Positions 4,313 to 42,164 of a stretch of 64,000 bases of DNA are shown here, in pieces. The notes under the pieces were generated by a model, which saw only the letters and a program-made list of their open reading frames with translations, was not told the origin of the DNA and made no database searches. A program made the translations under genes and the position numbers. Where the stretch lies: positions 4,121 through 68,120 of the forward strand of contig JANQOE010000040.1 of NCBI GenBank assembly GCA_028279245.1, given 5' to 3'. Each line of letters starts with the position of its first letter. Positions within the stretch are counted from its first letter, which is position 1. Source of the stretch: Alphaproteobacteria bacterium (GTDB lineage: Bacteria > Pseudomonadota > Alphaproteobacteria > UBA6615).

Positions 4313-4364
4313 GACTAGGTCGCAATCTCTCGCTTACATCCACCTCGATCTTCAGGAGCGCTAG

Positions 4365-5944: not shown

Positions 5945-5956
5945 AGCGGGGACAAC

Positions 5957-16417: not shown

Positions 16418-16648
16418 CTGGACTGCTTCCGAACATCTAACACCTAGACTTGGTCGCTGAACGCAGCACATGTCGCAGTTCTCTTGAAATGCCCTAAGAC
16501 CGAATTCACTGCTTTGACCCTATCGGCAAAACTCGACCGGAACCTTTGGGCCGTTGCGGTTACATCGTGTTTCTCCGATCCTTCGATACCATTCCAGCAC
16601 CATGTCGGAGGCCAACCGACACCCAGCGGAGGCAATCACCAAAACGCC

Positions 16649-25985: not shown

Positions 25986-26541
25986 TCCGCCGCCCGCTCG
26001 CATCTCCAAGCGGGGCACACACACCATCGTCAGATCCATAAGCAGCGCCATAGTATTTTTTGCCGCTGCGGTGGCCACGACGACGGCCGCGGCTGCGGAC
26101 ACTCCCGTCGTTGACCCCAAGCGTTTCGAGGCCGTGCAAGCGCTGAACCTTCAGCTAGAGGCTACGACCCTGGCGACCTCGGAACGCAGTCCAAATGATT
26201 CACAACGCGTCAACGGCAATCAAAGCCGCAAAACCTTGGCAGAAATACTTAACAGCGGCCCAGCCGAACGTTTCCAGCGAAAGATGGCCGCCAGCAACCA
26301 TCTTCATCAGCTAAGAAACGAACGGGTTGCACGCGAGCGCGCCGAGCAAGAGGAAGCCACCGGAGAAGATCGAGCCCGCATCGATCGCGCGACAAGTCGA
26401 CGCCGCGCGAGCGAAGTTATCGCCCGGCACATACCGAAAAGAGAGGTCGATGAACTCCAAGCCGCTCTCACCGAAGCGATGGACCTCGTTAACCTGCACC
26501 GCGAGGCGGAGAACCTGATCCAGCTCGAGTTCGACCGCTAA
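25888..26541 (+). CDS. Hypothetical secreted, highly charged/coiled-coil protein
   Basis: ORF opens at TTG 25888 inside the 3' end of the Sel1 gene. A GTG at 25972 would give a clean Sec signal (…RISKRGTHTIVRSISSAIVFFAAAVATTTAAAA/DTP) with only a 14-bp overlap. The rest is R/E-rich helical. Confidence 0.45.
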   Translation: MTKGNSRRLSKTPVPDLRVVCTSWTVRTVPRLDPPPARISKRGTHTIVRSISSAIVFFAAAVATTTAAAADTPVVDPKRFEAVQALNLQLEATTLATSERSPNDSQRVNGNQSRKTLAEILNSGPAERFQRKMAASNHLHQLRNERVARERAEQEEATGEDRARIDRATSRRRASEVIARHIPKREVDELQAALTEAMDLVNLHREAENLIQLEFDR

Positions 26542-27740
26542 ACCGTTTGCTGCCGCCTCAAATCATCAACAGCCACGGCCTCATTCTGCTGGTCCCGGCG
26601 AGAAGACAAGAGTTCCATAAGCCGAGCCGCCCCGACCGAGCCGCTCCGACCGACATTAAACACAAGCCGATCCCGTGCAGTTCGAATACGTGCAACCGCA
26701 ACCTCATTTGCATCCGTCGCTAGTCGTCGGATCACCGCTCCAATCTCGCCGAGCTGATCCGGTGACACCACGGCGCCAAGTTCCGCCCGAACGCTGACCT
26801 CCACTGGCTCCAGACCCAAGCGATGGTAATCCGGGTTACGTACCTTCCGCGGGACGTCCACAAACACCACCGGTCGCTCTTGGCTAAACGCAAAGTCCAG
26901 CGCCGCCCCAGACCAATCGCTCACCATGATATCCGCGCCAAGCAATGACTCGGCCGACGAGATGTTATCGTCGTAGACGAACCGTTCATGAGATCCGAAC
27001 CGGCTCCGTATCTCCTTTAGTGTGTTCGCGGACCGCCGCTTCGTCTCTGGATGGGGCCGAACCGTGACCGCCAACCCGGCATCGATCAACGCACCAACGA
27101 CTTCGTCCCCCAACGTTTCCAAAAGACCATCTGGCCCCCATGACGGGGCGACAAGAACCGATATCGGGTCATCAGGTCCTCTTGTCCGCTGGAGTCCTTG
27201 TGCTCGTCCAGCAATTATCCGATCAAGGCGACCATAACCATGTTCGAACAGCCGTTTTTCCGGCAACCCATGAAGTGCCTCCGCCGCACGTATCTCCTCA
27301 ACATGATGCGGTCCGGCACAGAATATCTCATCGAAATGGTCGAACGCTTCTTGTCGATAGACCATGTGCGAGCTGACGATCGAGTGATGGATATACACAT
27401 ATGAAACAGGGTAGACGGAGCGCTTTAGCTGGAGGGTCTGCAGATCGGGCGTGGTCATGACGAGAACCTCCGCCTGCAGGGTCCGGAAAAGCATGGTTCT
27501 GGTAACTTGGTCGCCAACAAAGAACCCGGAAACCCGACCATCGTCTAGCTTGAGGCCAGGGTCATTGCGGTCCGACGCCAAGTAGCAGATGGATTGGCCG
27601 TGATCCTTCAGAAGGCTCAAAATCACCGGCTCCAGATGCGGCCAGCTAAAGCTCCCCTCCGAATAGAAGACAATCCCACGCGCCTCGGCGGGCAGTGACT
27701 GAAAGCGGCGCGAACCACGCCAAGCATCCATCAAGCGCAT
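26538..27740 (-). CDS. CDP-alcohol (CDP-glycerol-type) phosphotransferase, TagB/TagF family
   Basis: C-terminal MVSDWSGAALDFAFSQERPVVF parallels the TagF active-site region (…TDYSS..FD……P…F). 400 aa, soluble. 4-bp overlap with the convergent upstream ORF end. Confidence 0.6.
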   Translation of the reverse strand: MRLMDAWRGSRRFQSLPAEARGIVFYSEGSFSWPHLEPVILSLLKDHGQSICYLASDRNDPGLKLDDGRVSGFFVGDQVTRTMLFRTLQAEVLVMTTPDLQTLQLKRSVYPVSYVYIHHSIVSSHMVYRQEAFDHFDEIFCAGPHHVEEIRAAEALHGLPEKRLFEHGYGRLDRIIAGRAQGLQRTRGPDDPISVLVAPSWGPDGLLETLGDEVVGALIDAGLAVTVRPHPETKRRSANTLKEIRSRFGSHERFVYDDNISSAESLLGADIMVSDWSGAALDFAFSQERPVVFVDVPRKVRNPDYHRLGLEPVEVSVRAELGAVVSPDQLGEIGAVIRRLATDANEVAVARIRTARDRLVFNVGRSGSVGAARLMELLSSRRDQQNEAVAVDDLRRQQTV

Positions 27741-28534
27741 AACAACTCGCCTGGCTCGGCCAACTGACAGAATCGGGCCAAGTCCCCCCTACTCTTCCTA
27801 TCTTCGATGAAGTTGACATCTGCAACCGAGTCCACCTCAAGCCAACCACCGCTAATACACGCCGCATGTACAGGCTCACCGCGATCAACCATGATCTGCA
27901 GGAAGTCTGTCATGTACAGGTCGCGTTTCTTCCGCCCTCGGATGCCAAAGTCGTTGTCCAGATTTCGGTAAAGATCTACCAGATGGCGGCCCGACCCAGC
28001 AGCTATTTTCAGTAATCCGACGTAACGAGCATCGATGTCGTCGGAGCTTGTTGGTACATCCCCGATCTCCGTAATAAGGTTTGACGGACCCATCTTAAGG
28101 GTTTCCGAGTCCTCTAGAAGATCGTTGTACCGAGCCCGCCAATAAGCCCGCCAGGACGTGTCCACCGTCACGGCAACGCTTCCGTCCTCCTGCAGCAGGC
28201 TTCTTAGTACCCGCGCCTCAAAAACGATATCGCCGTACGAAATGATGGCGTCTTCACCAGAACCAAGCACCTCCTCTGCACACATCAGCGACTCAACCAT
28301 GTTTGAGGTGGCGTAGGCTGGGTTACGAATTGTGCGGCAACCGGAAGGCCGAATCTGATCGCCTTCGAAGCCGGTCACGATGGTTATGTCGGTGATACCG
28401 CACTCACGGAGAACCGCCAGCTGACGGTGCAGAATGGGCACCTCACCGATCTCCACTAAGCACTTCGGTCGATTGGTCGTTAAGGGACGGAGTCGCGTCC
28501 CCTGGCCGGCCGCAAGAATGATCGCCTGAGTCAT
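27731..28534 (-). CDS. Sugar/alcohol-phosphate nucleotidyltransferase (LicC/NTP_transferase family; likely cytidylyltransferase)
   Basis: AIILAAGQGTRLRPLTTNRPKCLVEIG…ITDITIVTGFEGDQI aligns with LicC (AIILAAGLGTRLRPMTENTPKALV…INDIIIIVGY). 10-bp overlap with the downstream gene. Confidence 0.75.
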   Translation of the reverse strand: MTQAIILAAGQGTRLRPLTTNRPKCLVEIGEVPILHRQLAVLRECGITDITIVTGFEGDQIRPSGCRTIRNPAYATSNMVESLMCAEEVLGSGEDAIISYGDIVFEARVLRSLLQEDGSVAVTVDTSWRAYWRARYNDLLEDSETLKMGPSNLITEIGDVPTSSDDIDARYVGLLKIAAGSGRHLVDLYRNLDNDFGIRGRKKRDLYMTDFLQIMVDRGEPVHAACISGGWLEVDSVADVNFIEDRKSRGDLARFCQLAEPGELLCA

Positions 28535-29229
28535 TTCGTTCCTTCAAACAGCCGCTTTATCCGGCCAATGTCCGATTCTCGAGAAGGTCCCGGGCGCTCC
28601 GGGTGCCACATGAACCCCTCGCAACAACGCCATGTCTTGTGTCGAAAACCTTCGATCGACCCGTCGTCGGCGACTACAGTCGGGTCCAAGTTGTCGGCAA
28701 CGCCACTAGGCAACACGGCATAGTCATGAAAGCTGTTGACGCTGAATGAGCGCGATCCGTCTGTCGGGTCCAAAGCAAAGACCGTGTGCTCTGTTCCCGC
28801 GTGTCCCTCTATGTGATCGAGACTGCCGCCAAAGTGTACGTTGAGTACCTGCATGCCACGGCATATCCCCAGTATGGGAAGCGCGCGCGCGTGGCATTCA
28901 CGCACCAGCCGAAACTCGAACTCATCCCGTTCGGCGGCCGCCGTGCGCGCATCATCAAGATGCGCCAGGTCGTTCCCACCTGTGAGGATGACGCCACAAA
29001 GGTCTAACGCATCCAAGTAGGTCGAGGTCTCATCAGTTACCGAGTTGCTCAGCGGTATGGGCAGGAACCCAATCGTCCATAGGAGCCGGGCCCAAGCCTG
29101 ATCAAGACAGTCGCGCCGCTCTTGTCCCGAATAGAAGACCTCGACACGTTGGGTGAGCCCGATGCGTCTCACCGGACCGAAGTCACGTGCATGGCTGCCT
29201 CGGCTCGACGGTGTCACCAAACGTTCCAA
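28531..29229 (-). CDS. Class-I glutamine amidotransferase-like hydrolase (peptidase C26 / PuuD-like gamma-glutamyl hydrolase)
   Basis: ILGICRGMQ nucleophile-elbow Cys, downstream His/Glu (FMWHPERPG). The start is probably internal (GTG near VRRIGLTQRV), which would relieve the 47-bp overlap with the next gene. Confidence 0.7.
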   Translation of the reverse strand: MERLVTPSSRGSHARDFGPVRRIGLTQRVEVFYSGQERRDCLDQAWARLLWTIGFLPIPLSNSVTDETSTYLDALDLCGVILTGGNDLAHLDDARTAAAERDEFEFRLVRECHARALPILGICRGMQVLNVHFGGSLDHIEGHAGTEHTVFALDPTDGSRSFSVNSFHDYAVLPSGVADNLDPTVVADDGSIEGFRHKTWRCCEGFMWHPERPGPSRESDIGRIKRLFEGTK

Positions 29230-30994
29230 CCGAAACGCCGCCCGGATTGAACCGAACTACGTTGCCACAAATCCGACCCTGTGGCCCACGCTGCAGCTTC
29301 ACCGCACCAGCTTCATTGTCGACGAACTGGTTGCCGTAGATATCGTTGCCAACGCCGTCCGTCTCCTCGGCGCCGCCAACGCGTATCCCCGCACCTACGT
29401 TGCCCCAGACCGTATTGTACCGGAAGATGTTGCCACTGCCCCGTGAACCCAACCCGCCGGAATTGGGGTCTAACTGCCCTGTGCAGAAATTGTGCTCAAC
29501 GATGTTCCCAAAAGAGCCTTCTTTTACTTCGACGCACTCATTTCCTTGCGTGTCGAAAGTGTTGTGATGCACCCAATTGTTCTGGGATATATCGACGCCA
29601 TCCGTCGGGCTTTTCCCGTCACCATATTGTTTCGGTGACGTGCCGATGTAGACGCCCTCGCCACTCTTGCCGCCTTGGTCGAACTTGAAGTCCCTGACAC
29701 CACAGTTGCGGAAAGTCGAGTAGGCGATCTCATTGTCGCTCGCATAGTACCGGAGTCTAACGCAACGGCCGCGCGCGTTCTGAAACGCCACACTCAGAAT
29801 GCGCATCCCTTCAACACCATCGAACGGCTCAGTGCCTTGAGCCCAAAGCAGTGTCCCCCGATAGCTGTCAAGATCATCGTCTTCATCGAACTTGCCGTCG
29901 ATCTCTAGGTCAGAGATGGTAATGAAGTCATGGTTGATCTCGACAATCCGGTCATCCCCGCCACCTTTGATCACCGCGCCAGGCGTGCCGGTAATGAATA
30001 TCGGCTGTTCGGCTGTTCCATGCCGGACGGAGCGAACGTCCTGCATATAGACACCCGGGCCCAAGCGCACGACGTCGCCCGGCATCGCCCGCCTCAGCCC
30101 CTCTTGAATACTTTGCAGTGCCGCGGCCGCCGAACGCCCGTCCGCGTCGTCATCGCCATCGGGACTAACATGGTAGACTTGCCCTGCCCCAAACCCGCTT
30201 GAACCACTCCTGATCGGACGGTCAGTTGTAATAGGGTCCGGTATTGAACGGTCACGCGTCTCATTGGATTCCGAACCGCCGCGACTAACCGCAGCAACCT
30301 CAAGCGACTCCACAGATGACTCAACCGCCCCAGTGTCCGGCGCCGCGAACGTTATCTCAAGGCGAGGTCGATCCTTACGATCGTCATCGTCGCTTGAGCT
30401 AAACTTGAGTCCGTCGTCGGCTTCCGTATTGAGTATGACAAAGCCCCTATTCGGCTCACTACCGTTCACCCACGACTCAACAACCGCAAGTCCCGCATCG
30501 TTGAGCGTTGCACTACCGGCCCGGCTATCGACAACACCGAGAACTTCATCACCCCACCCTTTCCGGTAGGTTTCCCAGGTCGTTTCGCGGTCGTCCCAGT
30601 CGACGAGCGATTCATAGACTTGATACTGTTGCTCACTTTTCTGCGTAACGTTGATGGCGATACTCGCCCCAACGACCTTCGATCCCTCGGGTATTCTGGA
30701 GATGTCCCACGCCATCAAAGCAACATAGTCACGGCCTGAGCCATTCGGCCGGTCGCCGTCAACAACAAGCTCCTCGTCTCGGCCGAACTCTTCGTCCGGC
30801 TTAGACGCTGCCACATAAGTGTCCCGCGCACCGTCATAGTCACGACTCGGTGCGACGCCGCCCTGAAACGCCTCTGTGACCGTGCGCGCCTCGGCAGCAG
30901 CGGGATCGCCGCCAACCACGGCCCCCAACAGTGCCAACACAGCAATTCTGGAAACCGAGGACCGCCTCAGCGGGCCCCAACCGGCAACTACCAT
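29183..30994 (-). CDS. Secreted polysaccharide-active protein: N-terminal DNRLRE-like domain plus C-terminal right-handed beta-helix (lyase/epimerase-like)
   Basis: Signal peptide (AVLALLGAVVGGDPAAAEA). N-terminal half carries a …DDRKDRPRLEITF… motif resembling the DNRLRE domain. C-terminal PbH1 repeats (NNWVHHNTFDTQGNECVEV…NIVEHNFC…NIFRYNTVWGNVGAGIRV…NDIYGNQFVDNEAGAVKL). Confidence 0.55.
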   Translation of the reverse strand: MVVAGWGPLRRSSVSRIAVLALLGAVVGGDPAAAEARTVTEAFQGGVAPSRDYDGARDTYVAASKPDEEFGRDEELVVDGDRPNGSGRDYVALMAWDISRIPEGSKVVGASIAINVTQKSEQQYQVYESLVDWDDRETTWETYRKGWGDEVLGVVDSRAGSATLNDAGLAVVESWVNGSEPNRGFVILNTEADDGLKFSSSDDDDRKDRPRLEITFAAPDTGAVESSVESLEVAAVSRGGSESNETRDRSIPDPITTDRPIRSGSSGFGAGQVYHVSPDGDDDADGRSAAAALQSIQEGLRRAMPGDVVRLGPGVYMQDVRSVRHGTAEQPIFITGTPGAVIKGGGDDRIVEINHDFITISDLEIDGKFDEDDDLDSYRGTLLWAQGTEPFDGVEGMRILSVAFQNARGRCVRLRYYASDNEIAYSTFRNCGVRDFKFDQGGKSGEGVYIGTSPKQYGDGKSPTDGVDISQNNWVHHNTFDTQGNECVEVKEGSFGNIVEHNFCTGQLDPNSGGLGSRGSGNIFRYNTVWGNVGAGIRVGGAEETDGVGNDIYGNQFVDNEAGAVKLQRGPQGRICGNVVRFNPGGVSVGTFGDTVEPRQPCT

Positions 30995-32799
30995 TTGAAT
31001 GGGACGTCCTCGTGCACCGTCCAGTTATCATCCTTATCAACGGAATAGTGGTTGATATGCCCAGCCTTGAGGTCACGGCCAACAGCCAACTTGTCTCCGT
31101 TCTTATCAAGCTGGGTTGTTAAGCCATGGTAGATGTCCACACGATCCCGCTCCAGGATCGTTTCTACCGACTCACCAGCATGCTCATCTGACATACCGGT
31201 CAACGCGTACACGACCTTCGGAATGTCCAGTAACTGGACCAGCTTGTCAGAGACTTCGACCGGTTCGCTAGGAGCGAATGGCGGCTTGATCAGCAACAGC
31301 GCATTACTACGTGCGTCAATCCCAACACCGTTCTCTCGGCGGACATCCGCCTTCTCTATGGCATCCGCGTCCTCGTCCGAGATCGTTATGAAATCCAACT
31401 CCGGTCGCTCTTTCCGAGCCTTTCCACCTGCAAGCCAGCTCCCATGGTCCGACTGAAATATGATCAACGAGGATTCAAAGCGGCCGAGCTGCTTCAACTG
31501 ACGAACATATGCTGCCAGCAGGTCCGTCACGTGGTAGCTTTGCTCAAAGAAATCGGCATTGTCCGGATCAAACCGCCCATCGCGCATGACGTGGTATGGC
31601 CGATGCGGTGGATTCAAATGCGCGAATACATACTCGCCGGCATCACCCCGCCGGAACTCGTTGTCCATTATCTGCTGGAACTGATTCAGCGACGCTACGG
31701 TTCGCAGGTCCGACACCGCCCCAACGCCGTTTCCGGCCGCACGCGTTATCGGCCCCCTTCCATCATGAAACACCTCTTGCCGCAGGAACGTCGGTGCTAT
31801 CCGCATCAACCACAGGTCGGCCGCCAACTCCAACGACACCGGGTTCCCCACATATTGGCGATTGGCATACGGGTTGGCCGTCGAGTTCTTGAACGTATAG
31901 CCGGTCGTATTGAACCCCGCTGTCTTCAGTCTGAACAGCACCGACTCGTCGAAGGTTTCATCAAGCCAACGCTCAACACTCGTCTCTCCGGGATACACTT
32001 GCCCACTTATGAAAGACGGAACCGACGCTTTCGTGGCCATGTAGTTACTTCTCGCGCGCGGGAAGTGCTGGAAGCCATCGAAATCACTCTCGACTCCCAT
32101 CTCCGCCACAGCGTCCTGAAACCAAGGACCGTGATACCCGTCCACGACGATATGATAGACGTTGCCCGAGAAGGAGGCCGCACTCGGTGCATCCGCACGT
32201 GCTTCCGTTGTCACACCCCGACCACCCAGAAACCCGGTTCCTGCCACACCAAGCTCAACCACCACCAAAACGATCGCAATAGGCCAACCAAGCCGGTAAA
32301 CGACCGCCTTTGGCACAAACACAAAAGCAGCGGCTACCAACACGAACAGTCCCGCCTCCAAAAGAATCGACAGGAATGGTTCGTCGGGTGTTTCGGTACC
32401 TGACTCGAACTGGTCAATTGTCAGCGGCGCAACAACATCAGCCAGCAATACAAAAACACCCAGAAAGAACAACCCGCTGACAATCCAGCCCAGGGTCTTC
32501 TCTCCCGTGACTTTGGCCAGCACGAGAGCCAACAACAGATACCCGACAAGCGCCAGAACCGCATACAACGCAAGCACCTCGGGCTGACCCAGCTCCTCAA
32601 GGTTCGTTGATATGATCCGCATCGGAAAAGCGAATAACACCACAACCCCGAAAACGGCAGCAGCACCAATCGCCCGCATTCTCATTCCAGCGCTCATACT
32701 TCCAACATCCAATTGTTCGCTATATCGACGTCTAGTCTTCGCCTCGCGCAAACTACTACAGAGCCAAAACGGACGCAGGGTCCTTTGGGATCGTTGCAA
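30988..32799 (-). CDS. Membrane-anchored sulfatase/alkaline-phosphatase-superfamily transferase (LtaS/MdoB/EptA-like phospho-group transferase)
   Basis: About 5 N-terminal TM helices, then periplasmic sulfatase-fold domain with FQSDHGSWL and metal-ligand context (…AHLNPPHRPY…). Confidence 0.65.
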   Translation of the reverse strand: MQRSQRTLRPFWLCSSLREAKTRRRYSEQLDVGSMSAGMRMRAIGAAAVFGVVVLFAFPMRIISTNLEELGQPEVLALYAVLALVGYLLLALVLAKVTGEKTLGWIVSGLFFLGVFVLLADVVAPLTIDQFESGTETPDEPFLSILLEAGLFVLVAAAFVFVPKAVVYRLGWPIAIVLVVVELGVAGTGFLGGRGVTTEARADAPSAASFSGNVYHIVVDGYHGPWFQDAVAEMGVESDFDGFQHFPRARSNYMATKASVPSFISGQVYPGETSVERWLDETFDESVLFRLKTAGFNTTGYTFKNSTANPYANRQYVGNPVSLELAADLWLMRIAPTFLRQEVFHDGRGPITRAAGNGVGAVSDLRTVASLNQFQQIMDNEFRRGDAGEYVFAHLNPPHRPYHVMRDGRFDPDNADFFEQSYHVTDLLAAYVRQLKQLGRFESSLIIFQSDHGSWLAGGKARKERPELDFITISDEDADAIEKADVRRENGVGIDARSNALLLIKPPFAPSEPVEVSDKLVQLLDIPKVVYALTGMSDEHAGESVETILERDRVDIYHGLTTQLDKNGDKLAVGRDLKAGHINHYSVDKDDNWTVHEDVPFKW

Positions 32800-33053: not shown

Positions 33054-34364
33054 ATGAGGATCAGTGTGTTCGGTATCGGCTACGTCGGCTCTGTGTCCGC
33101 TGCTTGCAGCGCCCAACAGGGCCATTCCGTCGTCGCCGTCGACTCAGACGAAAGCAAGGTCACGGCCATCAACGCGGGCGTCGCACCGATTGTCGAGGCC
33201 GGTTTGTCAGCCTTGATCGCGGAGCAAGTCAGCGAAAATCGACTGACTGCAACCGTCAAGGCGAGAAACGCAATACTTGAAACGGACGTCAGCTACATAT
33301 GCGTCGGTACACCAAGTCTCGAGACCGACGACATCAGCCTCAAACAGATCACCCATGTCTGCACGGAAATCGGTGAGGCTCTGCGCAGCAAGAACGAGCA
33401 CCACACTATAATCACGCGAAGCACAATGCTGCCCGGCTCGATGGAAAATGTGGTCATCCGGCTAATTGAGAAACACTCCGGACTGACGGCGGGAACAGAC
33501 TTCGGGGTCGGGATTTATCCGGAATTCTTACGCGAAGGCCAGGCGATATTCGACTTTACGCACCCGTCCACGATTGTCGCTGGGTGTCTCGACGACCAGA
33601 CAAAGGAGATTCTCCGCTCTCTAACAAGCCAATATGATTGCGAGAAGCACTACATCGACATACGCACCGCCGAGATGGTGAAATACTGTGCCAATGCGTG
33701 GCATGCTTCAAAAATCAGCTTCGCCAATGAAATCGGCTGGCTCTGCAAGAAACTTGAAATAGACGGTCACAAAGTTTTGGACGTCATGTGCTCCGAAACG
33801 CGTCTAAACATGTCTCGACACTATATGCGCCCGGGCTTTGCGTTTGGCGGGTCATGTCTCCCGAAAGACCTCCGCGCTCTCCGCCACAAGGCCAGGCATC
33901 AGGACATTAGTACACCGGTCCTTGATGCGATCATGTTGGCAAATGAACGCCAGATTGATCGTGCAATAAAACTGATTACGGGTAGTGGCAATCGTCGTGT
34001 TGGCTTGCTCGGCCTAGCTTTCAAGGCCGGCACCGATGACTTGAGAGAGAGTCCGTTGGTCGCGCTGGCGGAGCGTCTGATCGGCAAGGGCTACGAGGTC
34101 ATCATATACGACCGCGCGGTATCCGCCTCACCGAGCAAAGGAAACAGCCGCGCGGTAGATCGGGTTCTGCCGCACCTTGCCTCGATCCTTGTCGATGAAC
34201 TGGACCACGTCATCGATTGTTCCGACACGCTTGTCGTCGGTACGGAGGATGAAGACTTCAAGAACCTGAACGGACAGATCCGCCCCGAGCATACGGTGGT
34301 GGATCTGGTACGAGCCGACCCCGGATTGAGCGAAAGGTGCAACTACCAGGGCATCTGCTGGTGA
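33054..34364 (+). CDS. algD: GDP-mannose 6-dehydrogenase
   Basis: MRISVFGIGYVGSV…PIVEAGLSALI…ICVGTPS…HHTIITRSTMLPGS, near-colinear with P. aeruginosa AlgD (MRISIFGLGYVGAV…PIVEPGLEALL…ICVGTPS…RHTVVVRSTVLPGT). 436 aa. Confidence 0.9.
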   Translation: MRISVFGIGYVGSVSAACSAQQGHSVVAVDSDESKVTAINAGVAPIVEAGLSALIAEQVSENRLTATVKARNAILETDVSYICVGTPSLETDDISLKQITHVCTEIGEALRSKNEHHTIITRSTMLPGSMENVVIRLIEKHSGLTAGTDFGVGIYPEFLREGQAIFDFTHPSTIVAGCLDDQTKEILRSLTSQYDCEKHYIDIRTAEMVKYCANAWHASKISFANEIGWLCKKLEIDGHKVLDVMCSETRLNMSRHYMRPGFAFGGSCLPKDLRALRHKARHQDISTPVLDAIMLANERQIDRAIKLITGSGNRRVGLLGLAFKAGTDDLRESPLVALAERLIGKGYEVIIYDRAVSASPSKGNSRAVDRVLPHLASILVDELDHVIDCSDTLVVGTEDEDFKNLNGQIRPEHTVVDLVRADPGLSERCNYQGICW

Positions 34365-34412: not shown

Positions 34413-34622
34413 ATGACTTTGCAAACGCGGATTAAGTTCGGAGCTAGCGTACTATTCGTCGCATTGACCGCAAGTGCACCAGCCTACGCGTACCTGGATC
34501 CCGGTACAGTCACCATGGCCTTCAGTGCTATCGCGGCTGGCCTTGCCGCCGGGCTCTTGTACCTCAGGGTTGGTTGGTCAAAAGCGGTCGGTTTCTTCAC
34601 AAAACGAAAGAAAGTGGACTAG
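34413..34622 (+). CDS. Hypothetical small exported/membrane protein
   Basis: 69 aa; signal-like N-terminus (ASVLFVALTASAPAYA) and a second hydrophobic segment. Ends one base before the large fusion gene. Confidence 0.3.
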   Translation: MTLQTRIKFGASVLFVALTASAPAYAYLDPGTVTMAFSAIAAGLAAGLLYLRVGWSKAVGFFTKRKKVD

Positions 34623-37600
34623 TTGCACATGGCGTCGGTCGCGGCGGGAACCTTCCTCGAAACGGATCAAACCATACCGCAGAGTGCCAAGTTCTGTTCC
34701 GATGGCGAGGTTGAAGAACCACTTGGCCTCCACGCCGCCAACTCCTACCTGGCGGTTATCCTTGGTGCGGGGCGGCCATTCCGTGGAATGGAGCCCTCCG
34801 CCCTGGCCAGTACGCCCGACCATCGGCGCGTACTGGATTGGTTGTTAGAGGCCTTCGCCACGGTCCCCGCTGATATCCACTATGTCGGCGGATATCAGCT
34901 TGAGGATGTTGCCCGCCATGTCTCGAACTTCACCTTCTCTGTAAATCCGGAATGGCAATCAACCGGGAGCGTCGGCACGCTATTCGTCGCACCCCTCAGT
35001 GCGCAGCAATCCTGCATCGCCTGCTATAGCGATGTTGTTTTTACGAAGATGGCAGTGGACGGCGTTTGCGAAGCCGCTGGCGATGTCGTCCTAGCGGTAG
35101 ATCGGACTTGGCGTCAGCGCTACTCAGGCCGTACGAGAGCCGACTTGGATGCCGCTGAAAAGGTGCGTCTGAACCGGGGTTCACTGGTGGCCATCGGGAC
35201 CGACATTTCCCCGGCTGACGCCGACGCCGAGTTCATTGGCCTCGCAAAGTTCTCACCGCAGGCCGTGAAAACCATACTCGCACTACGGGCCTCGGCCGGT
35301 GACGTGTTACGCAAAACCAACCTGCCCGTTCTCGTCGACCAGCTGTTGGCGAGCGGTCTGCGTTGTAACGTGGTGGATGTCGGTGGCAACTGGGCCGAGC
35401 TCAACGCGCCACAGGACCTGGCCCGGTTCGTGCTCGGAACAAAAGCTGAAACGCTGGACGCCCTTCGGCCGGTGGTTCGTGAGTGTGTGGTCTGTGACCA
35501 GGTTCGGTTTACAACGGGGGAATGGGCCAAAGATAGGGCCCGCTGCCTTGACAACGTGGTATCCGCGTTCGGCCCAATCCCGGTGGTGGTCCGGAGCAGC
35601 ACACTCACCGAGGACAGTTGGTTATCCACTTGTGCCGGCGCCTTTCTCAGCGTCCTCGATGTGCCCTGTGGCGATCGCGAACAACTGACGGACGCTATTG
35701 AGCGAGTCATTGCCTCCTATGGCGATGACAACGCCGACCATCAGGTGCTTGTCCAAGAGATGGTCGAAAACGTTCAGATGAGCGGCGTTGCGTTCACACG
35801 CTCACTGAACTTTGGTGCGCCCTACTATACCATCAACTACGACAACACGACCTCCAGTACCGAAACTGTGACCAGCGGCGTTGGCACGGACCTAAAGACT
35901 CTGGTACTGCACCGTTCGGTACAGGAGTTATCGCCCGACACACCACCAGCCCTGCGCGCGTTGTTGCCAGCGCTCCGCGAAGTCGAGTCACTGATTGGGC
36001 ACGATTCACTAGACATCGAGTTCGCCATCAACCGCGACGGCACTGTCTTCTTGCTACAGGTACGACCTATCGCCGTTGATCACAGTGCCTGGCGTGGCTC
36101 CGACGAAGCAGTCGAGTCCTCGCTCGAAGCCGCGGAGAAGGTCTATCGGCTGAAACAAACCCCGCCACCCTTCACCCACGGCGAACGGACAGTTTTCGGC
36201 GTAATGCCGGACTGGAACCCGGCTGAGATCATTGGCACCAGTCCGCGCAGGCTAGCCCTCAGCCTATACCGGTATCTCTTTACCGACGAGGTATGGGCGG
36301 CCCAGCGAGCCGCGTATGGCTATCGCGATGTCCGGCCCCAGCCACTAATGATAACTCTCGCCGGCCATCCCTATATTGATGTGCGGGCAAGTTTCAATTC
36401 GTTCATTCCGGCCGATTTACCCGATGAACTCGGTCTGCGGCTCGTCAACCACTATCTAGAGCACCTGAGGACCAAACCCGAGCTTCACGACAAGATCGAG
36501 TTCGATATCGCGTTCACTTGCCTGACCCTCGATTTCGATCAACAAGCAACGCGCCTTCATGACGCCGGCTTTAGCCCCGACGAGATTGACCAACTACGAC
36601 AATCGCTGCGCGGCGTCACCAAGTCTGGCTTGACACGTTCAGACGATGACATGCGTCAGATCGCAAAGCTCGAGACGCGGTTCGATCGCGTGATGCGATC
36701 GTCCCTGCCTCCGTTGGAACGGGCTTGCGTTCTGCTGGAAGACTGCCGCCGATACGGCGCTCTCCCGTTCTCGCATCTGGCCAGAAGTGGGTTCGTCGCG
36801 GTCGCATTGCTACGTTCGGCCGTCGCGCGCGGAATCATGAGCTCCGACCAGGTGTCGGTCTTCCTGAACTCCCTGAACACTGTCGCCAAACAACTCACCC
36901 ATGATGCCAAGGCGGTCGTCGACGCCACGATGACCTCGGAGGCCTTTTGCGCTGCGTACGGACATCTTCGTCCCGGCACATACGACATTACGACGCCAAG
37001 CTATGCCGACGACGCCCAACGATACCTCCTGCCGATTATTGAGAAGACCCGAGAACATGGTCCGGAGACGACCGTCAAGTTTGAGTGGGATGAGCAGCTC
37101 CGGAGCGGCCTATCGACTGCCCTACGAGAAGCGGGTCTCCCCGAAGACATAGATCTGTTGGATCGCTTCTTTAGACAGGCAATCGAAGGCCGCGAGCGGG
37201 CGAAATTCGCCTTTACCCGAAACCTAAGCGCCGCCCTAGACTCGATTGCTGAGTTTGGAAATCAGCTCGGGATCTCAAGACACGAGTTGGCAAACATATC
37301 CTTGGAAGACTTCCAGACCGTCCGTAGCGGCAACGAACCGCCTGACCTACAGGCCTGGCTGCTTCAGCGCGCGGAGGAAGGTCAATCCTCGCACAACCTC
37401 TCAGAAGGGATCGAACTGCCTCCACTCATCACCGCTGAACAGCAGATACGGACCTTCCACTACTCCGACACCCAGCCAAACTTCATCACAAGTGGGAAAG
37501 TGGTGTCTGAAATCGTATCGGTCTCGGAAAGCTGTGCCGGAGATGAAATCGCCGGCAAGATCGTTGTAATTCCTCAGGCTGACCCCGGTTATGATTGGCT

Positions 37601-37787
37601 GTTCGGTTACGAAATCGCGGGGTTGATCACGACCTACGGCGGCGCCAACTCGCATATGGCAATTCGGGCCGCCGAGTTTCAGCTTCCGGCCGCAATCGGG
37701 GTCGGCGAAGTCCGATACGGCCAACTGACGCGCGGTACGCTCGTTTCCCTTGATTGCCAGAATCGACGCATCGACGTGATTCGATAG
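34623..37787 (+). CDS. Multidomain PEP-synthase/rifampin-phosphotransferase-like kinase: N-terminal nucleotidyltransferase-like domain + PPDK_N ATP-grasp + C-terminal PEP-utilizer phosphohistidine swivel domain
   Basis: N-terminus AVILGAGRPFRG… has NTP_transferase-like glycine-rich loop. Middle VVVRSSTLTEDSWLSTCAGAFLSVLDV equals the PPDK_N (pyruvate,phosphate dikinase N-terminal) signature. C-terminus GGANSHMAIRAAEFQLPAAIGVG equals the PEP-utilizers mobile-domain His motif. 1054 aa. Confidence 0.75.
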   Translation: MHMASVAAGTFLETDQTIPQSAKFCSDGEVEEPLGLHAANSYLAVILGAGRPFRGMEPSALASTPDHRRVLDWLLEAFATVPADIHYVGGYQLEDVARHVSNFTFSVNPEWQSTGSVGTLFVAPLSAQQSCIACYSDVVFTKMAVDGVCEAAGDVVLAVDRTWRQRYSGRTRADLDAAEKVRLNRGSLVAIGTDISPADADAEFIGLAKFSPQAVKTILALRASAGDVLRKTNLPVLVDQLLASGLRCNVVDVGGNWAELNAPQDLARFVLGTKAETLDALRPVVRECVVCDQVRFTTGEWAKDRARCLDNVVSAFGPIPVVVRSSTLTEDSWLSTCAGAFLSVLDVPCGDREQLTDAIERVIASYGDDNADHQVLVQEMVENVQMSGVAFTRSLNFGAPYYTINYDNTTSSTETVTSGVGTDLKTLVLHRSVQELSPDTPPALRALLPALREVESLIGHDSLDIEFAINRDGTVFLLQVRPIAVDHSAWRGSDEAVESSLEAAEKVYRLKQTPPPFTHGERTVFGVMPDWNPAEIIGTSPRRLALSLYRYLFTDEVWAAQRAAYGYRDVRPQPLMITLAGHPYIDVRASFNSFIPADLPDELGLRLVNHYLEHLRTKPELHDKIEFDIAFTCLTLDFDQQATRLHDAGFSPDEIDQLRQSLRGVTKSGLTRSDDDMRQIAKLETRFDRVMRSSLPPLERACVLLEDCRRYGALPFSHLARSGFVAVALLRSAVARGIMSSDQVSVFLNSLNTVAKQLTHDAKAVVDATMTSEAFCAAYGHLRPGTYDITTPSYADDAQRYLLPIIEKTREHGPETTVKFEWDEQLRSGLSTALREAGLPEDIDLLDRFFRQAIEGRERAKFAFTRNLSAALDSIAEFGNQLGISRHELANISLEDFQTVRSGNEPPDLQAWLLQRAEEGQSSHNLSEGIELPPLITAEQQIRTFHYSDTQPNFITSGKVVSEIVSVSESCAGDEIAGKIVVIPQADPGYDWLFGYEIAGLITTYGGANSHMAIRAAEFQLPAAIGVGEVRYGQLTRGTLVSLDCQNRRIDVIR

Positions 37788-38072: not shown

Positions 38073-38837
38073 GTGACTGGAGAGCCAGCTATGGGGGTGG
38101 CGAGCACTTCTCTCGTGGAGGCACGAACCGAATCATCCGATGATACACACTCCCATCGGATCGCAACGATCGTCATTGGCCGAGACCGTGTTCTTTGGGA
38201 AGGTCTACGCAGTCTCCTGCCGGCATCCGAATTTGACGTCATCTGCGCCGTGGAAGATGTAGCGCGATTCTCCACGACAAAAGTCACGACCGCCCCGGCT
38301 GACCTAATCCTACGAGACCTTTCCACGGGTGCGACAGATCTGAAATCAGAACTCCAACACCTGCGGTCGATCATGCCGGATGTGCATGTCGTCGCGATTA
38401 CTGAGCGGTTCGACCCAACACTTCTATCAGAGTGCGTTGCTGCAGGTGTTCAAGGCCTCCTAAAAAAAGACATCACAGCAGACGTACTTGCTCGTTCGCT
38501 ACGCATGGTAATGCTCGGCGAGAAGGTCTTTCCGACGCGTCTGACCGGACTGCTCGTCAGCGGAAAGGTCGAAGCACGGTCGCCGGTCAGCATGCCGGAC
38601 GCCAATCCTCGCAAGCTTTCGAAACGGGAAATGCAAATCGCCCACCTCGTAGCGCGCGGTGAATCGAACAAAATGATTGCGAGTCGGCTGGTTATCTCTG
38701 AATCCACGGTTAAGGGTCACATGAACAATCTACTGCGCAAGACCAACGCCTCAAATCGAACCCAAGCGGCCATTTGGGCGATCCGGGAGAGTGGCGTTGA
38801 ACCAACGCCTCAAATCCCGCATAGCCGGCGTCGATGA
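38073..38837 (+). CDS. LuxR/FixJ-type response regulator with atypical receiver domain
   Basis: C-terminal KLSKREMQIAHLVARGESNKMIASRLVISESTVKGHMNNLLRK is the GerE/LuxR HTH. Receiver keeps the phospho-Asp (LILRDLS), Thr and Lys, but the N-terminal acidic pair is RD (IGRDRV) rather than DD. Confidence 0.75.
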   Translation: MTGEPAMGVASTSLVEARTESSDDTHSHRIATIVIGRDRVLWEGLRSLLPASEFDVICAVEDVARFSTTKVTTAPADLILRDLSTGATDLKSELQHLRSIMPDVHVVAITERFDPTLLSECVAAGVQGLLKKDITADVLARSLRMVMLGEKVFPTRLTGLLVSGKVEARSPVSMPDANPRKLSKREMQIAHLVARGESNKMIASRLVISESTVKGHMNNLLRKTNASNRTQAAIWAIRESGVEPTPQIPHSRRR

Positions 38838-40221
38838 CACGCCAGTGGGCACCGTCAAAGGCAACAAGAAACGCAAGCGTCGTCTACTCGTCGTTGGCCT
38901 AGCAGCCTTCGGCCTAGCTGTAGCCGCGACCGCACTACCAGCCTACAATCTCGCGCGCGATACCTATGATCGAATCACTGTTGAGTCCGAACTCGGCACT
39001 TGGCGCCCCCTAGCCGACCAGGGCGACGCGCGGGCACAAAAGAACCTCGGACTAATCTACGCCCGCAAGAGCCCACTCCAGGACGAGGTCGAAGCAGCGA
39101 GTTGGTTTCGCCGGGCGGCGGAACAAGGAGACCCAACAGCACAAAAGAACCTGGCAAGCATGTACAGGGATGGGCGCGGTGTCGGCCAATCGGACGAACT
39201 TGCGGCACAATGGTACCTCAGCGCCGCAGAACAGGGTGACCGCACAGCACAGAAGAACATCGGCCGGATGTATGCCGACGGCGTTGGTATTGAGGCAAAC
39301 GACACCGAAGCCGCACGATGGCTGACCATGGCAGCCGAACAGGGAGATCTCGGCGCGCGGAACATGCTGGCCGGCCTCTATAGCAACGGCAGTGCAAATG
39401 CTGACAAGCTGATCGAAGCGGCCGCGCTCTACACATCAGCAGCAGAAGCGGGCGACCCCGAAGCCCAACACAACCTCGGGAGCATGTACCGCGACGGCCG
39501 AGGCGTCGCGCAGGACTACGCAAAAGCCCTCAGCTTGTACCAGTCAGCGGCGGAGCAAGGCCACCTCGGTGCAAAAGCAAACCTAGGCGGGATGTATCGC
39601 GATGGAAAAGGCATCGCGCCGGACGATGCAGCCGCCATCAAATGGTTCCGAGACGCCGCAGAACAGGGCCACGCAAACGCCCAGAGCAACTTGGCAACAA
39701 TGATTCGGGTCGGTCGAGGCACAGACATCGACTACAACGCGGCTATCGAGTGGTACACCCTGGCGTCAGCACAGGATCACGCCGGTGCCATGAACAGCCT
39801 CGGCAACATGCACAGGGACGGAACCGGCGTCACCCAAGATTACGAGAAAGCCATCGAATGGTATAGCCGAGCGGCGGCTCTCGGTCACACCGGCGCACAA
39901 AACAACCTAGGCAGTATGTATCGCGAAGGTGACGGCGTGACGCGCGATCTGGCCACGGCCGCAAACTGGTACGAACAGGCTGCGCGGCTTGGCAACGCAA
40001 AAGCCCAAAGCAACCTCGGCGATATGTACCGCGATGGCTTAGGTGTCAGGCAGAATTTCATTGAAGCCTACGTATGGCTGGGTCTGGCTGCGGAACAGGG
40101 ACTGGAGGAGGCGATCGTCGATTTAGAGCGCATCACAACCCTGATCGGACCAGTTCAGTTGGCTCGGGCCAAAGACCGTCTGCGTGAAGCCAAGACGACG
40201 CCTCCCGTTACTGCAGACTAG
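38791..40221 (+). CDS. Sel1-repeat protein with N-terminal membrane anchor (AlgK-sized, about 10 repeats)
   Basis: KKRKRRLLVVGLAAFGLAVAATALPA signal-anchor, then repeated …AQKNLG.MYRDGRGV.QD…AA.WY..AAEQGD… units. 476 aa. Start may be internal, as it overlaps the regulator by 47 bp. Confidence 0.75.
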   Translation: MALNQRLKSRIAGVDDTPVGTVKGNKKRKRRLLVVGLAAFGLAVAATALPAYNLARDTYDRITVESELGTWRPLADQGDARAQKNLGLIYARKSPLQDEVEAASWFRRAAEQGDPTAQKNLASMYRDGRGVGQSDELAAQWYLSAAEQGDRTAQKNIGRMYADGVGIEANDTEAARWLTMAAEQGDLGARNMLAGLYSNGSANADKLIEAAALYTSAAEAGDPEAQHNLGSMYRDGRGVAQDYAKALSLYQSAAEQGHLGAKANLGGMYRDGKGIAPDDAAAIKWFRDAAEQGHANAQSNLATMIRVGRGTDIDYNAAIEWYTLASAQDHAGAMNSLGNMHRDGTGVTQDYEKAIEWYSRAAALGHTGAQNNLGSMYREGDGVTRDLATAANWYEQAARLGNAKAQSNLGDMYRDGLGVRQNFIEAYVWLGLAAEQGLEEAIVDLERITTLIGPVQLARAKDRLREAKTTPPVTAD

Positions 40222-40514: not shown

Positions 40515-42164
40515 TCAAATAAGGGGCTCCATCTTTCCAAGCAGCGTTTTGATGAGATTGACCTCGATCTGACGGGTCGACTCATTCACCTCTGGAAACG
40601 GACCCACCGAGTGGTAGTGCATATAGAAATCCTCATGAAGAAAGGAAATCGGCTCCTTTCCGTGCCCAAGATCAAAACAATCGGTCAGGCGGAACAGCCT
40701 AAACTCATTTAACAATCCGCGAGGAAGAACATAGGAGAGCGTCGCCCTGATGCCTCCCAGAAACGGAGGGTGCTGCTTCTTTCCAACCGTCCAACTGTTG
40801 CGGGGATGCATGTCCCTTTCGATGTCCTGTTCGACAGCTCCTGCCACGGCCTCATCGCGGATGATGAGGGCCGTCTCGGTGTTCAGGTTAAAGGAACGCG
40901 GGTCCAGGTTGAACGACCCAATCCAAACCGAATGGTGATCCGCAACGAACGTTTTCGCGTGCACGCACGCCTGGAGGGTCGGCGTTTCGACCAAGCCCGG
41001 CGCTCCCTCCTCGCGATCTTCGGAAAGCCGCGCGCCAAATCGTGGCATGATTTGCATGATATCGCCGGGCTGGGGTTTGAGCTCAAATATCCTGATGCGC
41101 CATTTGTGAACATACCGCCGCTTCTTTCCGCATGCGAACGCGTACGCCAAGACGTTGTCGGTGCTCGCCAAGCTGTTTGTTGAAACGGAGATGTCGAGTG
41201 GCGGGTTACGGCGCCGCAACTTCCTGATCACCGAGTCAGGACGCTTGCCCAGGACGAAGTAAGGCGTTTGCAGCAGAATGGACTCGTGTGCTTGGGACAG
41301 AAACTCAATCAGTTTCTTTGACGTAACACTCCCGCGTCCAAAGCCGGATAGCTTGTTCTTTCCGGGAGGGTCAGCAACGAATTCAACATCCGGCACATCG
41401 AATATATGATCCGTGAGACGGCGTCGCACCAACTCAACGTCCGCGAGTTCGGAATCCAGATCGTCGAAGGAACCTTCGATATCGAAGCTCTCTCGCGTCT
41501 CGAAGCGAGGGTAACTGCTGCGTTCGACATAGGGCCGCACATCGACGAGGTCTTCAGCTGGAACAGAGAATGAGGAGGTCCAATAGTCGTCGAACGATTG
41601 ACTCATCTCTGAGACAGCTGGCCCCAGCACGAGGACATCCCGATCCTTGAAGTTCCGAACCGTCCCACGGTCGTAATAGTCGTTCTGGTAGTTCCGGCCT
41701 CCGGTAATGCCGACGCACCCGTCCATGAGGAACAACTTGTTGTGCATCCGCTGATTCACTTGCTTGAAGTTGCCCAGCATGGCTCGGGCGAGACCCCAAG
41801 TGGACGGACGGAGGTAATTCGCGCTTGCATTATAGAACTTAACTTCCAGGTTGGGGTGAGCGATCGCATCGAATGCGACCAGCCTCGGCTCGGCATCGAA
41901 CGGCCACGCATCGATCAGAACTTTGACCTCGACGCCGCGTTTCGCTGCTTGATGAAGCTCGTAGGCCAGGTACCGGCCCGTCTCATCGTCCTTCCAGATA
42001 AACGTCTGAATGAAAATGGAGGCCCGCGCCGCTCGGATGAGATGAGCCCTGACGAACAGAGCATCCTCGCCGAGGTTCAGCAAACGAATAAAATGCGTGC
42101 TCCGAGAAAGGGCTTGACCGGCCAGCGAGTGGATTGGCGAGGGTGTCGTTCCAGAGAACGTCAT
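40515..42164 (-). CDS. Phospholipase D / cardiolipin-synthase-family protein (two HKD motifs)
   Basis: First HKD RMHNKLFLMDGCVGITGGRN and second VHAKTFVADHHSVWIGSFNLDPRS (H-x-K-x4-D…GS-N). 549 aa. Confidence 0.8.
   Translation of the reverse strand: MTFSGTTPSPIHSLAGQALSRSTHFIRLLNLGEDALFVRAHLIRAARASIFIQTFIWKDDETGRYLAYELHQAAKRGVEVKVLIDAWPFDAEPRLVAFDAIAHPNLEVKFYNASANYLRPSTWGLARAMLGNFKQVNQRMHNKLFLMDGCVGITGGRNYQNDYYDRGTVRNFKDRDVLVLGPAVSEMSQSFDDYWTSSFSVPAEDLVDVRPYVERSSYPRFETRESFDIEGSFDDLDSELADVELVRRRLTDHIFDVPDVEFVADPPGKNKLSGFGRGSVTSKKLIEFLSQAHESILLQTPYFVLGKRPDSVIRKLRRRNPPLDISVSTNSLASTDNVLAYAFACGKKRRYVHKWRIRIFELKPQPGDIMQIMPRFGARLSEDREEGAPGLVETPTLQACVHAKTFVADHHSVWIGSFNLDPRSFNLNTETALIIRDEAVAGAVEQDIERDMHPRNSWTVGKKQHPPFLGGIRATLSYVLPRGLLNEFRLFRLTDCFDLGHGKEPISFLHEDFYMHYHSVGPFPEVNESTRQIEVNLIKTLLGKMEPLI

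Follow-up and report, generated by a model that had tools for sequence, protein, structure and literature searches.

What is a nucleotidyltransferase-like domain doing at the front of a kinase, when the same locus already encodes a separate nucleotidyltransferase (NTase)? The question is raised by a gene at 34629-37787 (+ strand) of a 64,000-nucleotide stretch of DNA from an Alphaproteobacteria bacterium (lineage UBA6615; assembly GCA_028279245.1, contig JANQOE010000040.1, positions 4,121 to 68,120), which we call the window. The N-terminal domain of the gene product (below, the N-domain) is a paralogue of the locus's own stand-alone cytidylyltransferase in which the catalytic loop has degenerated. 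The rest is most likely an L-glutamine-kinase-type enzyme of the Cj1418 family (EC 2.7.3.13), as judged from family models and gene context. We consider it probable that the protein is the entry enzyme of a cytidine-diphosphoramidate pathway and carries a neofunctionalised, probably non-catalytic NTase-like module. Further, this is a recurrent and uncharacterised architecture, not a one-off.

The gene is one unbroken open reading frame (ORF) on the + strand that extends from a TTG at 34623 to 37787, with the stop codon at 37785-37787. The probable start is the ATG at 34629: it is the choice of the gene caller and the start of a 100% identical database protein (P0001), and it gives a protein of 1052 residues, whose numbering is used throughout. 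Model confidence is given as pLDDT (per residue) and pTM (overall), the models being from AlphaFold2 (AF2). The parts of the gene are:

34629-37787, + strand: whole gene, NTase-like domain plus putative glutamine-kinase-type enzyme (alternative TTG start at 34623)
34629-34739, + strand: leader, residues 1-37, predicted disordered and non-conserved (gapped in homologues; pLDDT <50 for residues 1-36)
34740-35414, + strand: cytidylyltransferase-like domain, residues 38-262 (hhalign paralogy with the NTase of the locus; AF2; Foldseek)
34761-34805, + strand: degenerate glycine-rich loop LGAGRPFRGMEPSAL, residues 45-59 (column frequencies; loop census; table of kept and lost positions)
35415-36098, + strand: ATP-grasp (PPDK_N-type) nucleotide-binding domain, residues 263-490 (PF01326, E 2.5e-13; NF004508 alignment from residue 263)
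36099-37442, + strand: central, mostly helical domain, residues 491-938, with approximate boundaries (within NF004508; helical in the AF2 model; aligned to rifampin phosphotransferase)
37443-37784, + strand: C-terminal phosphohistidine swivel domain, residues 939-1052 (PF00391, PEP-utilizers, E 8e-14)

All three motifs that a preliminary description of the gene had quoted are present in this ORF: AVILGAGRPFRG at residues 42-53, VVVRSSTLTEDSWLSTCAGAF at residues 319-339 and GGANSHMAIRAA at residues 1004-1015. That description had called the fusion unusual, which the genomes do not bear out. With one genome scanned per species, at least 577 turned out to encode a relative. From these we took the 80 best and added four loci fetched earlier, which gives 84 loci (L002-L085). 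The 80 best come from Acidobacteriota, Pseudomonadota, Planctomycetota, Cyanobacteria, Actinomycetota, Chlamydiales, Bacteroidota, Verrucomicrobiota, Spirochaetes, Bdellovibrionota, bacteria of the candidate phyla radiation (CPR), Firmicutes, Helicobacteraceae and the archaeon Haloferax. The NTase-like N-domain is fused to the kinase in 70 of the 84 loci and missing in 12, and in one further locus each the gene is frameshifted or cut by the end of the contig; since the sample is biased to relatives of the query, the 70:12 ratio is no population estimate.

The fusion is also not an artefact of two genes read as one. A homologue search with the full protein returned more than 1800 homologues, of which the top 120 are all about 1000-1060 residues long, at a coverage of 93-100%, and the domain junction (G.WAELNAPQDLA.FVLGTKA.TL) is one of the family's best-conserved stretches. 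The continuous ORF, this conserved junction and the single ORF in 70 loci rule out a frameshift, and the gene is a single one, as first described. Two loci have the N-domain and the kinase in neighbouring ORFs (L059, 4533-7159; L046, 9488-13001); these are probably frameshifts or assembly errors in metagenome-assembled genomes (MAGs) and not degenerate domains that are truly unfused.

The kinase body, residues 263-1052, has the three-domain layout of phosphoenolpyruvate (PEP)-utilising, rifampin-phosphotransferase-type kinases that had been proposed for it, according to Pfam (PPDK_N and PEP-utilizers), NF004508 and Foldseek alike. The ATP-grasp domain begins at a conserved GTKA motif and contains RSSTLTED (residues 322-329), in which R322, S323, S324, E328 and D329 are invariant. 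In the swivel domain the catalytic histidine, His1009 (codon 37653-37655), is likewise invariant; it aligns with residue 825 of the Listeria rifampin phosphotransferase 5fbs, which we take to be the phospho-carrier histidine of that enzyme. The full-length AlphaFold model (pLDDT 85, pTM 0.77) has the Listeria rifampin phosphotransferases as its best Foldseek matches, with E about 1e-21 over 800-950 columns.

The similarity to rifampin phosphotransferase and PEP synthase is at the level of the fold only. The NCBIfam models of PEP synthase, PPDK, rifampin phosphotransferase and PigC/RedH all score far under their cutoffs: NF041857 (rifampin phosphotransferase) reaches 23.6 bits against a cutoff of 999, and the PEP synthase models at most 47 bits against 598-1063. 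The model that fits is NF004508 (PRK05849), which still carries the NCBI name 'hypothetical protein': residues 263-1051 match its positions 5-788 of 789 with 920.7 bits against a cutoff of 501, and unfused Firmicutes kinases of about 780 residues score 943 bits against the same model. Several homologues (48-51% identity over 96% coverage) carry the JGI label 'glutamine kinase'; the RefSeq label for these proteins is only 'PEP-utilizing enzyme'. Pfam matches to PF13373 Dsc3_C and DCP1 were discarded as noise, well under their cutoffs.

The central helical domain is presumed to bind the acceptor substrate, L-glutamine. Between architecture classes its identity is 41.9%, compared with 40.8% and 47.5% for the catalytic domains, and among 83 kinases drawn from every architecture class 59 of its positions are invariant to 93% or more. 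That the central domain is conserved like the catalytic domains across classes argues for one shared acceptor.

Candidates for the following steps of the pathway, encoded in the same cluster, are:

28531-29229, - strand: Cj1417-like class-I glutamine amidotransferase (GATase) / Peptidase_C26 hydrolase (NF045546; Pfam Peptidase_C26/GATase; start according to the gene caller 29217)
27731-28534, - strand: stand-alone LicC/COG1213-type cytidylyltransferase, Cj1416-like (PDB 1jyk, LicC, E 1e-15; Pfam NTP_transferase)
26538-27740, - strand: TagF-like CDP-glycerol glycerophosphotransferase family protein (PF04464, Glyphos_transf, E 1.2e-7, 31.5 bits against a cutoff of 22.1)

The top NCBIfam match of the GATase is NF045546 (gamma-glutamyl-CDP-amidate hydrolase, the Cj1417 family), which covers it end to end (E 6e-39, 134 bits) with a lead of 28 orders of magnitude over its other NCBIfam matches. 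A further seven GATases, taken from other loci and from every architecture class, match only NF045546 (104-122 bits), and they therefore form one coherent family. The stand-alone cytidylyltransferase has the canonical loop GQGTRLRPLTTNRPKCL; its Cj1416-like assignment rests on this loop and on the LicC match, the model libraries having no dedicated Cj1416 model. By sequence, the kinase, the cytidylyltransferase and the hydrolase appear to be counterparts of Cj1418, Cj1416 and Cj1417, respectively. The TagF-like protein is a candidate phosphoramidate transferase.

In Campylobacter, Cj1415-Cj1418 make CDP-phosphoramidate 3'-phosphate from glutamine, ATP and CTP (PMC11800397). The order of phosphorylation before nucleotidylation that had been proposed for the fusion agrees with this pathway, in which Cj1418 acts before Cj1416; what is not supported is the assignment of the second step to the fused domain. 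A separate LicC-like NTase had been noted in the locus, and it is there at 27731-28534; a stand-alone NTase of this kind is found in 78 of the 84 loci and the GATase in 80. In the four GATase-less loci and in several of the NTase-less ones the contig stops at or just after the kinase. Of the 80 best-matching genome loci, every one whose contig permits a check has the whole trio of kinase, hydrolase and cytidylyltransferase. Since the stand-alone NTase is retained beside the fused domain, the fused domain does not replace it. In Pseudomonas, Natronospira, Acidovorax, a Nitrospinota MAG and a Vibrio plasmid, one operon holds the fusion gene side by side with the genes for the GATase and the NTase, and in the plasmid a TagF-like gene is annotated directly downstream of the trio.

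A weakly sulfatase/alkaline-phosphatase-superfamily-like membrane protein of about 570-600 residues also recurs beside the trio (30988-32799, - strand, in the window; 1774-3489 in L005; homologues in 12 loci). It resembles the phospho-group transferases LtaS, EptA and OpgB, and a role as a second transferase, in the periplasm, or in remodelling is conceivable.

We now turn to the N-domain. In a profile comparison (hhalign) it aligns with the stand-alone NTase at 27731-28534, encoded 6 kb away, over 217 columns (probability 99.2%, E 2.3e-19), and the pair is also found by tblastn inside the window (E 1.5e-10). The N-domain is thus a paralogue of the locus's own cytidylyltransferase. The AF2 model of the domain has a pLDDT of 92.4 and a pTM of 0.91, and its best Foldseek matches are the CTP:inositol-1-phosphate cytidylyltransferases 2xme and 4jd0 (E 1e-13, TM-score 0.7-0.77), followed by GlmU, PntC and RmlA. 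An NTase fold at the N-terminus, as first suggested, is therefore real. Single-sequence Pfam and NCBIfam scans of the whole protein and of residues 1-274 gave no NTase match for the domain; two homologues pass the Pfam NTP_transf_3 threshold. A profile of 30 N-domain sequences gave a marginal match among PDB sequences, to CTP:inositol-1-phosphate cytidylyltransferase (E 0.24).

In spite of its fold the domain departs from a canonical NTase. Three residues are critical in this cytidylyltransferase family, namely R16, K26 and D112 in IMPCT numbering (PMC12275187). At the position of the catalytic lysine (K26) the protein has Ser57, and the 120 closest homologues have S, A, V, T or P there without exception. 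The GxGxR (GTRLR) segment is deleted relative to the stand-alone paralogue in the hhalign alignment, leaving the loop five residues shorter. In a loop census of 70 fused and 85 stand-alone copies across the 84 loci, the stand-alone loop is nearly always ILAAGxGxRLRPxTxxxPKC[LM]V and the fused one LGAG[RK]PxxGxxP[SA]AL or similar. The lysine column has K in 93% of the stand-alone copies, as against S, A, P or T in the fused ones; among the 70 sampled fused loci the lysine is replaced in nearly all, and PKCL is retained only in L068 and L073. In the full-length model residues 50-66 have low pLDDT.

A column-by-column comparison of 70 fused with 82 stand-alone copies gives three groups of positions. 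Eighteen are conserved in both, among them G88-Y89, N106, D135, D158, W161, R168, E177, G204 and W255-x-E257. About 25 are conserved only in the stand-alone, active enzyme. Nine are conserved only in the fused domain, including G53, D70-W71, W109, R164 and the pair Y98-P99, which in this protein is replaced by V98-S99. Such a pattern is a signature of neofunctionalisation under selection and not of decay. Since the domain lacks the catalytic lysine and GxGxR and has its own conserved residues, we propose that it is a non-catalytic ligand-binding module.

Deep-branching fused forms have more canonical loops, with PKCL in L068 and L073 and GRGIRR in L069, L070 and L072, which suggests, at the level of sequence, progressive degeneration from an NTase that was once active in its fused form. 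Two of these loci, from the archaeon Haloferax elongans (L069, 9968-15129) and from the CPR bacterium Candidatus Nomurabacteria (L072), have the fused kinase, the GATase and the NTase together with an operonic adenosine phosphosulfate (APS) kinase; their near-canonical GRGIRR domains may be intermediates in the degeneration.

What the domain retains weighs against our reading, as do several points on the chemistry that are taken up below. The metal-binding residue of the Y-x-D motif, Asp135 (D112 in IMPCT), is kept in 96% of the fused and 98% of the stand-alone copies, together with many pocket residues. HMMER aligns Arg52 with the catalytic arginine of CTP:inositol-1-phosphate cytidylyltransferase (IPCT), position 52 being Arg in 63 of 120 homologues, and 102 of the 120 have Arg or Lys at position 49. 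These residues leave room for non-canonical catalysis by the N-domain. The protein might then be truly bifunctional: the N-domain would be an active, non-canonical NTase working on the kinase product, and the stand-alone NTase would do other work. The real NTase fold, the glycine-rich start of the loop, Asn106 and the W-x-E motif fit such an enzyme, and so do the PKCL and GRGIRR motifs of the deep-branching forms and the two homologues above the Pfam threshold. We nevertheless think it unlikely. The lysine is gone from each of the 120 close homologues and from almost every sampled fused domain, GxGxR is deleted, about 20 positions that the active enzyme conserves are changed, and the loop is modelled with low confidence. 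Further, the stand-alone NTase also accompanies the kinases that have no N-domain, which marks it as the Cj1416 counterpart, and wherever the contig permits a check it is never dispensed with. For the same reasons, the loss of the lysine and the canonical-loop NTase kept in essentially every locus, the idea that the fusion channels an intermediate from a kinase to an active NTase is not supported.

The partner genes differ between fused and unfused kinases. A homology search finds an APS-kinase-family gene in 11 of the 12 loci without the N-domain, compared with 6 of the 70 with it. The APS kinases of the former match NF004041, the family of Cj1415, with 153-183 bits against a cutoff of 127. 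In four loci the APS-kinase domain is itself fused to the N-terminus of the glutamine-kinase body, in ORFs of 974-993 residues:

L074, 3696-6620: APS-kinase–glutamine-kinase ORF (Pfam APS_kinase, PPDK_N and PEP-utilizers)
L079, 9371-12331: APS-kinase–glutamine-kinase ORF
L080, 970-3951: APS-kinase–glutamine-kinase ORF (Pfam APS_kinase, PPDK_N and PEP-utilizers)
L082, 2995-5940: APS-kinase–glutamine-kinase ORF

This fusion joins what are presumed to be the last and the first enzyme of the pathway in one polypeptide. A Methyltransf_11 protein is present in 10 of the 12 unfused loci and in none of the 70 fused ones, whereas TagF-like homologues occur in about 45 of the fused and in none of the 12 unfused loci. 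Two plasmids as annotated by RefSeq, a fused-type one from Vibrio and an APS-kinase-type one from Azospirillum, independently show the same dichotomy. This difference in gene content suggests a second pathway type.

Two side observations come from the plasmids. In the Vibrio alfacsensis plasmid (L086) cysD and cysN (4103-6508), encoding sulfate adenylyltransferase, lie divergently beside the fused-type operon; the annotation of the stretch shown has neither a cysC nor an APS kinase, and the arrangement may be a coincidence. In the Azospirillum lipoferum 4B plasmid AZO_p6 (L087) the APS-kinase domain is C-terminal in an 846-residue protein (3641-6181), and two sulfotransferase-domain proteins follow the trio (12013-13107 and 15598-16245), which hints that a 3'-phospho-CDP-amidate, similar to 3'-phosphoadenosine 5'-phosphosulfate (PAPS), is used by sulfotransferase-fold enzymes there. 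Such transferases were rejected as general partners of the APS-kinase type, there being no homologues in the other 84 loci.

Does the N-domain then replace the missing Cj1415 step, for example by holding CDP-amidate and presenting it to the transferase, so that no 3'-phosphorylation is needed? The near-complementary distribution of N-domain and APS kinase would fit, in four loci the APS kinase occupies exactly the N-terminal position of the NTase-like domain, and both modules would bind a cytidine nucleotide. The association has a Fisher p-value of 1e-8, which is inflated: in a neighbour-joining tree of the kinase domains the unfused kinases are essentially one clade, so that the association reflects a few ancient events. 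Nor are the two strictly exclusive, since the N-domain and an operonic APS kinase co-occur in at least five loci (L050, L055, L069, L070 and L072). The change to TagF-like transferases, whose donors are plain CDP-linked ones, could be enough to account for the loss of the APS kinase. All in all we regard such a replacement as quite improbable.

The points on the chemistry that were announced above are the following. The GATase scores 134 bits, below the NF045546 equivalog cutoff of 250. No Cj1415-like APS kinase is found in the 64-kb window (best tblastn E 0.2), nor is the Methyltransf_11 family that is typical of the unfused loci, and no methyltransferase is called within 10 kb of the gene. 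The end product may thus differ from the 3'-phospho-CDP-amidate and the O-methyl phosphoramidate (MeOPN) of Campylobacter. The link to Cj1418 itself goes through NF004508, the JGI names and the gene context, and not through a direct alignment: homology searches seeded with this protein and with an unfused kinase gave no named Campylobacter entry among the matches listed, those for the unfused kinase being unnamed gut-Firmicutes proteins only, and a literature text search for PRK05849 found nothing.

It could be asked whether the same chassis carries out other chemistry, in which L-glutamine is not the acceptor and the CDP-activated head group is something else than a phosphoramidate. Besides the missing APS kinase and type-I methyltransferase and the score of the GATase, such an alternative could draw on the TagF-like transferase, whose family normally moves glycerol-phosphate, on the reported promiscuity of Cj1416 (PMC12275187) and on the very different acceptors of the relatives RPH (rifampin phosphotransferase), PigC and RedH. 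Yet the kinase matches NF004508 at equivalog level, with 920 bits compared with 943 for kinases of full Campylobacter-like gene sets, and the central substrate domain with its 59 near-invariant positions is equally conserved across classes. In addition, a glutamine-amidotransferase-type hydrolase is obligate in about 95% of the loci, and such a hydrolase makes sense only with a gamma-glutamyl-type intermediate. We would therefore not expect a different chemistry, and regard phosphoramidate synthesis from glutamine as the better account.

From the Campylobacter pathway and from RPH-type kinases we infer the following steps. ATP would phosphorylate His1009, from which the phosphoryl group would move to L-glutamine's amide nitrogen. 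The stand-alone NTase (27731-28534) would convert phosphoglutamine and CTP to CDP-glutamine, and the C26 hydrolase (28531-29229) would release glutamate and leave cytidine diphosphoramidate. The TagF-like enzyme would then transfer the phosphoramidate with release of CMP and without a 3'-phosphorylation step, the acceptor most likely being the alginate-like exopolysaccharide of the surrounding cluster. In this scheme the N-domain would be a non-catalytic ligand-binding module with one of two functions. It may sense a product or intermediate and thereby regulate the ATP-consuming kinase, or the active cytidylyltransferase may dock on it, which would ease the hand-over of the labile phosphoglutamine. 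A sensor or docking role, which we favour by analogy with GMPPA, is the weakest part of this account.

More generally, we tentatively suggest, as a possibility somewhat short of an even chance, that there is a second widespread phosphoramidate-donor pathway, with no APS kinase, a TagF-like transferase, often linkage to a small YxDPGSGS membrane peptide, and a neofunctionalised pseudo-cytidylyltransferase domain that senses or hands over the cytidine-linked intermediate.

The setting of the genes bears on the product. An alginate-like, synthase-dependent exopolysaccharide cluster encloses the phosphoramidate-donor genes. Its members are:

16484-18160, + strand: Alg8-like family 2 glycosyltransferase (GT2)
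18157-19323, + strand: Alg44-like PilZ/HlyD protein
19326-19715, + strand: cupin
19715-21337, + strand: AlgG-like beta-helix protein
21330-25985, + strand: AlgK-like Sel1 protein, 1551 residues
29183-30994, - strand: CBM96/beta-helix protein
33054-34364, + strand: AlgD, an algD-like GDP-mannose/UDP-glucose dehydrogenase

Because of this cluster around the module, a phosphoramidate-decorated polyuronate is a reasonable prediction for the product.

As first described, algD and the 69-residue ORF are directly upstream of the fusion gene. The ORF (34413-34622, + strand) encodes a small membrane protein with a signal-like N-terminus, an AYLDPGT motif, a transmembrane helix and a basic tail. The gap of 1 nucleotide that had been given between it and the fusion gene is in fact 0, its TAG abutting the TTG at 34623, and the ATG lies 6 nucleotides further on; the small gene is apparently translationally coupled to the kinase gene. 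Proteins of its family have the motif AY[IL]DPG[ST]GS, a signal-like N-terminus, one transmembrane helix and a basic tail, and are covered by no Pfam or NCBIfam model. The family is present in 16 of 85 loci, in 10 of them on the same strand and at most 140 nucleotides upstream of the fused kinase, and it may tether the pathway to the membrane. Members are:

L037, 609-818: member of the 69-residue protein family
L044, 9764-9973: the same family
L043, 3114-3353: the same family
L054, 9681-9956: the same family
L039, 334-576: the same family
L041, 9721-9951: the same family
L014, 9637-9783: the same family
L024, 1099-1308: the same family

On the other side, directly 3' of the fusion gene, are genes for a LuxR-type response regulator and a 476-residue Sel1-repeat protein that overlaps its end (38073-40221, + strand), and further downstream one for a phospholipase D (PLD)-family, cardiolipin-synthase-like protein (40515-42164, - strand). 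These may regulate the exopolysaccharide cluster.

The kinase family, the logic of the pathway and the NTase fold are already known. In the literature that we found there is no description of the fused degenerate NTase-like domain or of its dominance among sampled genomes, and none of the APS-kinase-fused alternative or of an apparent second pathway type. A review calls the kinase 'C. jejuni-specific' (PMC9561416), and the phosphoramidate modification has been described as Campylobacter-only (PMC6429109); the sole broader mention that we found is a preprint on Borgs with Cj1416-1418-like genes (10.1101/2024.11.05.622173). The genomic data run counter to this Campylobacter-specific view, and most of the sampled loci are of a form that has never been characterised biochemically. 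If our reading is true, glycan decorations with a phosphorus-nitrogen (P-N) bond are not a peculiarity of Campylobacter. They would extend over more than 15 phyla, archaea included, and here they would be placed on an alginate-like exopolysaccharide. Annotation would gain from recognition of the family, which would also direct attention to new P-N glycans in environmental and host-associated bacteria. As a candidate bacterial pseudoenzyme regulator the conserved, catalytically degenerate domain is tractable, and the two pathway types offer a natural experiment on the need for 3'-phosphorylation of the donor.

How does the protein compare with known systems? With Cj1418, the Campylobacter jejuni L-glutamine kinase that catalyses the first step towards O-methyl phosphoramidate and that we take to be about 779 residues long, residues 263-1052 share the layout of ATP-grasp, helical and swivel-histidine domains. 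They cover end to end the NF004508 model of about 789 positions, which also fits the unfused kinases of about 780 residues, and genes for a Cj1417-like hydrolase and a Cj1416-like cytidylyltransferase are linked to this one. What distinguishes it is the NTase-like N-domain of 225 residues, which the unfused kinases sampled do not have. At the level of the locus, a Cj1415-like kinase and the methyltransferase family of Campylobacter-like loci are absent here, and a TagF-like transferase is present.

Rifampin phosphotransferase (5hv1, 5fbs) is the best structural match to the kinase body, and His1009 aligns with its His825. The identity is however 14-15%, the gene context is another one, and rifampin phosphotransferase has no N-terminal NTase-like domain.

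The N-domain has the fold of Cj1416/COG1213 enzymes such as LicC and inositol-1-phosphate cytidylyltransferase, and shares with them the motifs D..W..R...E, E..G and W.E as well as the Mg-binding aspartate. Unlike them it is without the catalytic lysine and GxGxR, about 20 positions conserved among the active enzymes are changed in it, and it has conserved residues of its own.

A comparable case is GMPPA, a non-catalytic paralogue that binds GDP-mannose and regulates GMPPB (PMC11228364); its structures 7d72 and 7d74 are among the Foldseek matches of the full-length model. Both have the NTase fold, are derived from an enzyme of their own pathway, are catalytically impaired and are retained under selection. 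As a eukaryotic subunit in its own right, however, GMPPA regulates the enzyme it is paralogous to, while the N-domain is fused to the upstream kinase.

Another comparison is with the four APS-kinase–glutamine-kinase fusions (L074, L079, L080 and L082; Acidobacteriota-type loci). These share with it the kinase body, the N-terminal fusion point and the partners GATase and NTase, and differ in what is fused there: a Cj1415-like P-loop kinase (Pfam APS_kinase, E 1e-34) and not an NTase-like domain.

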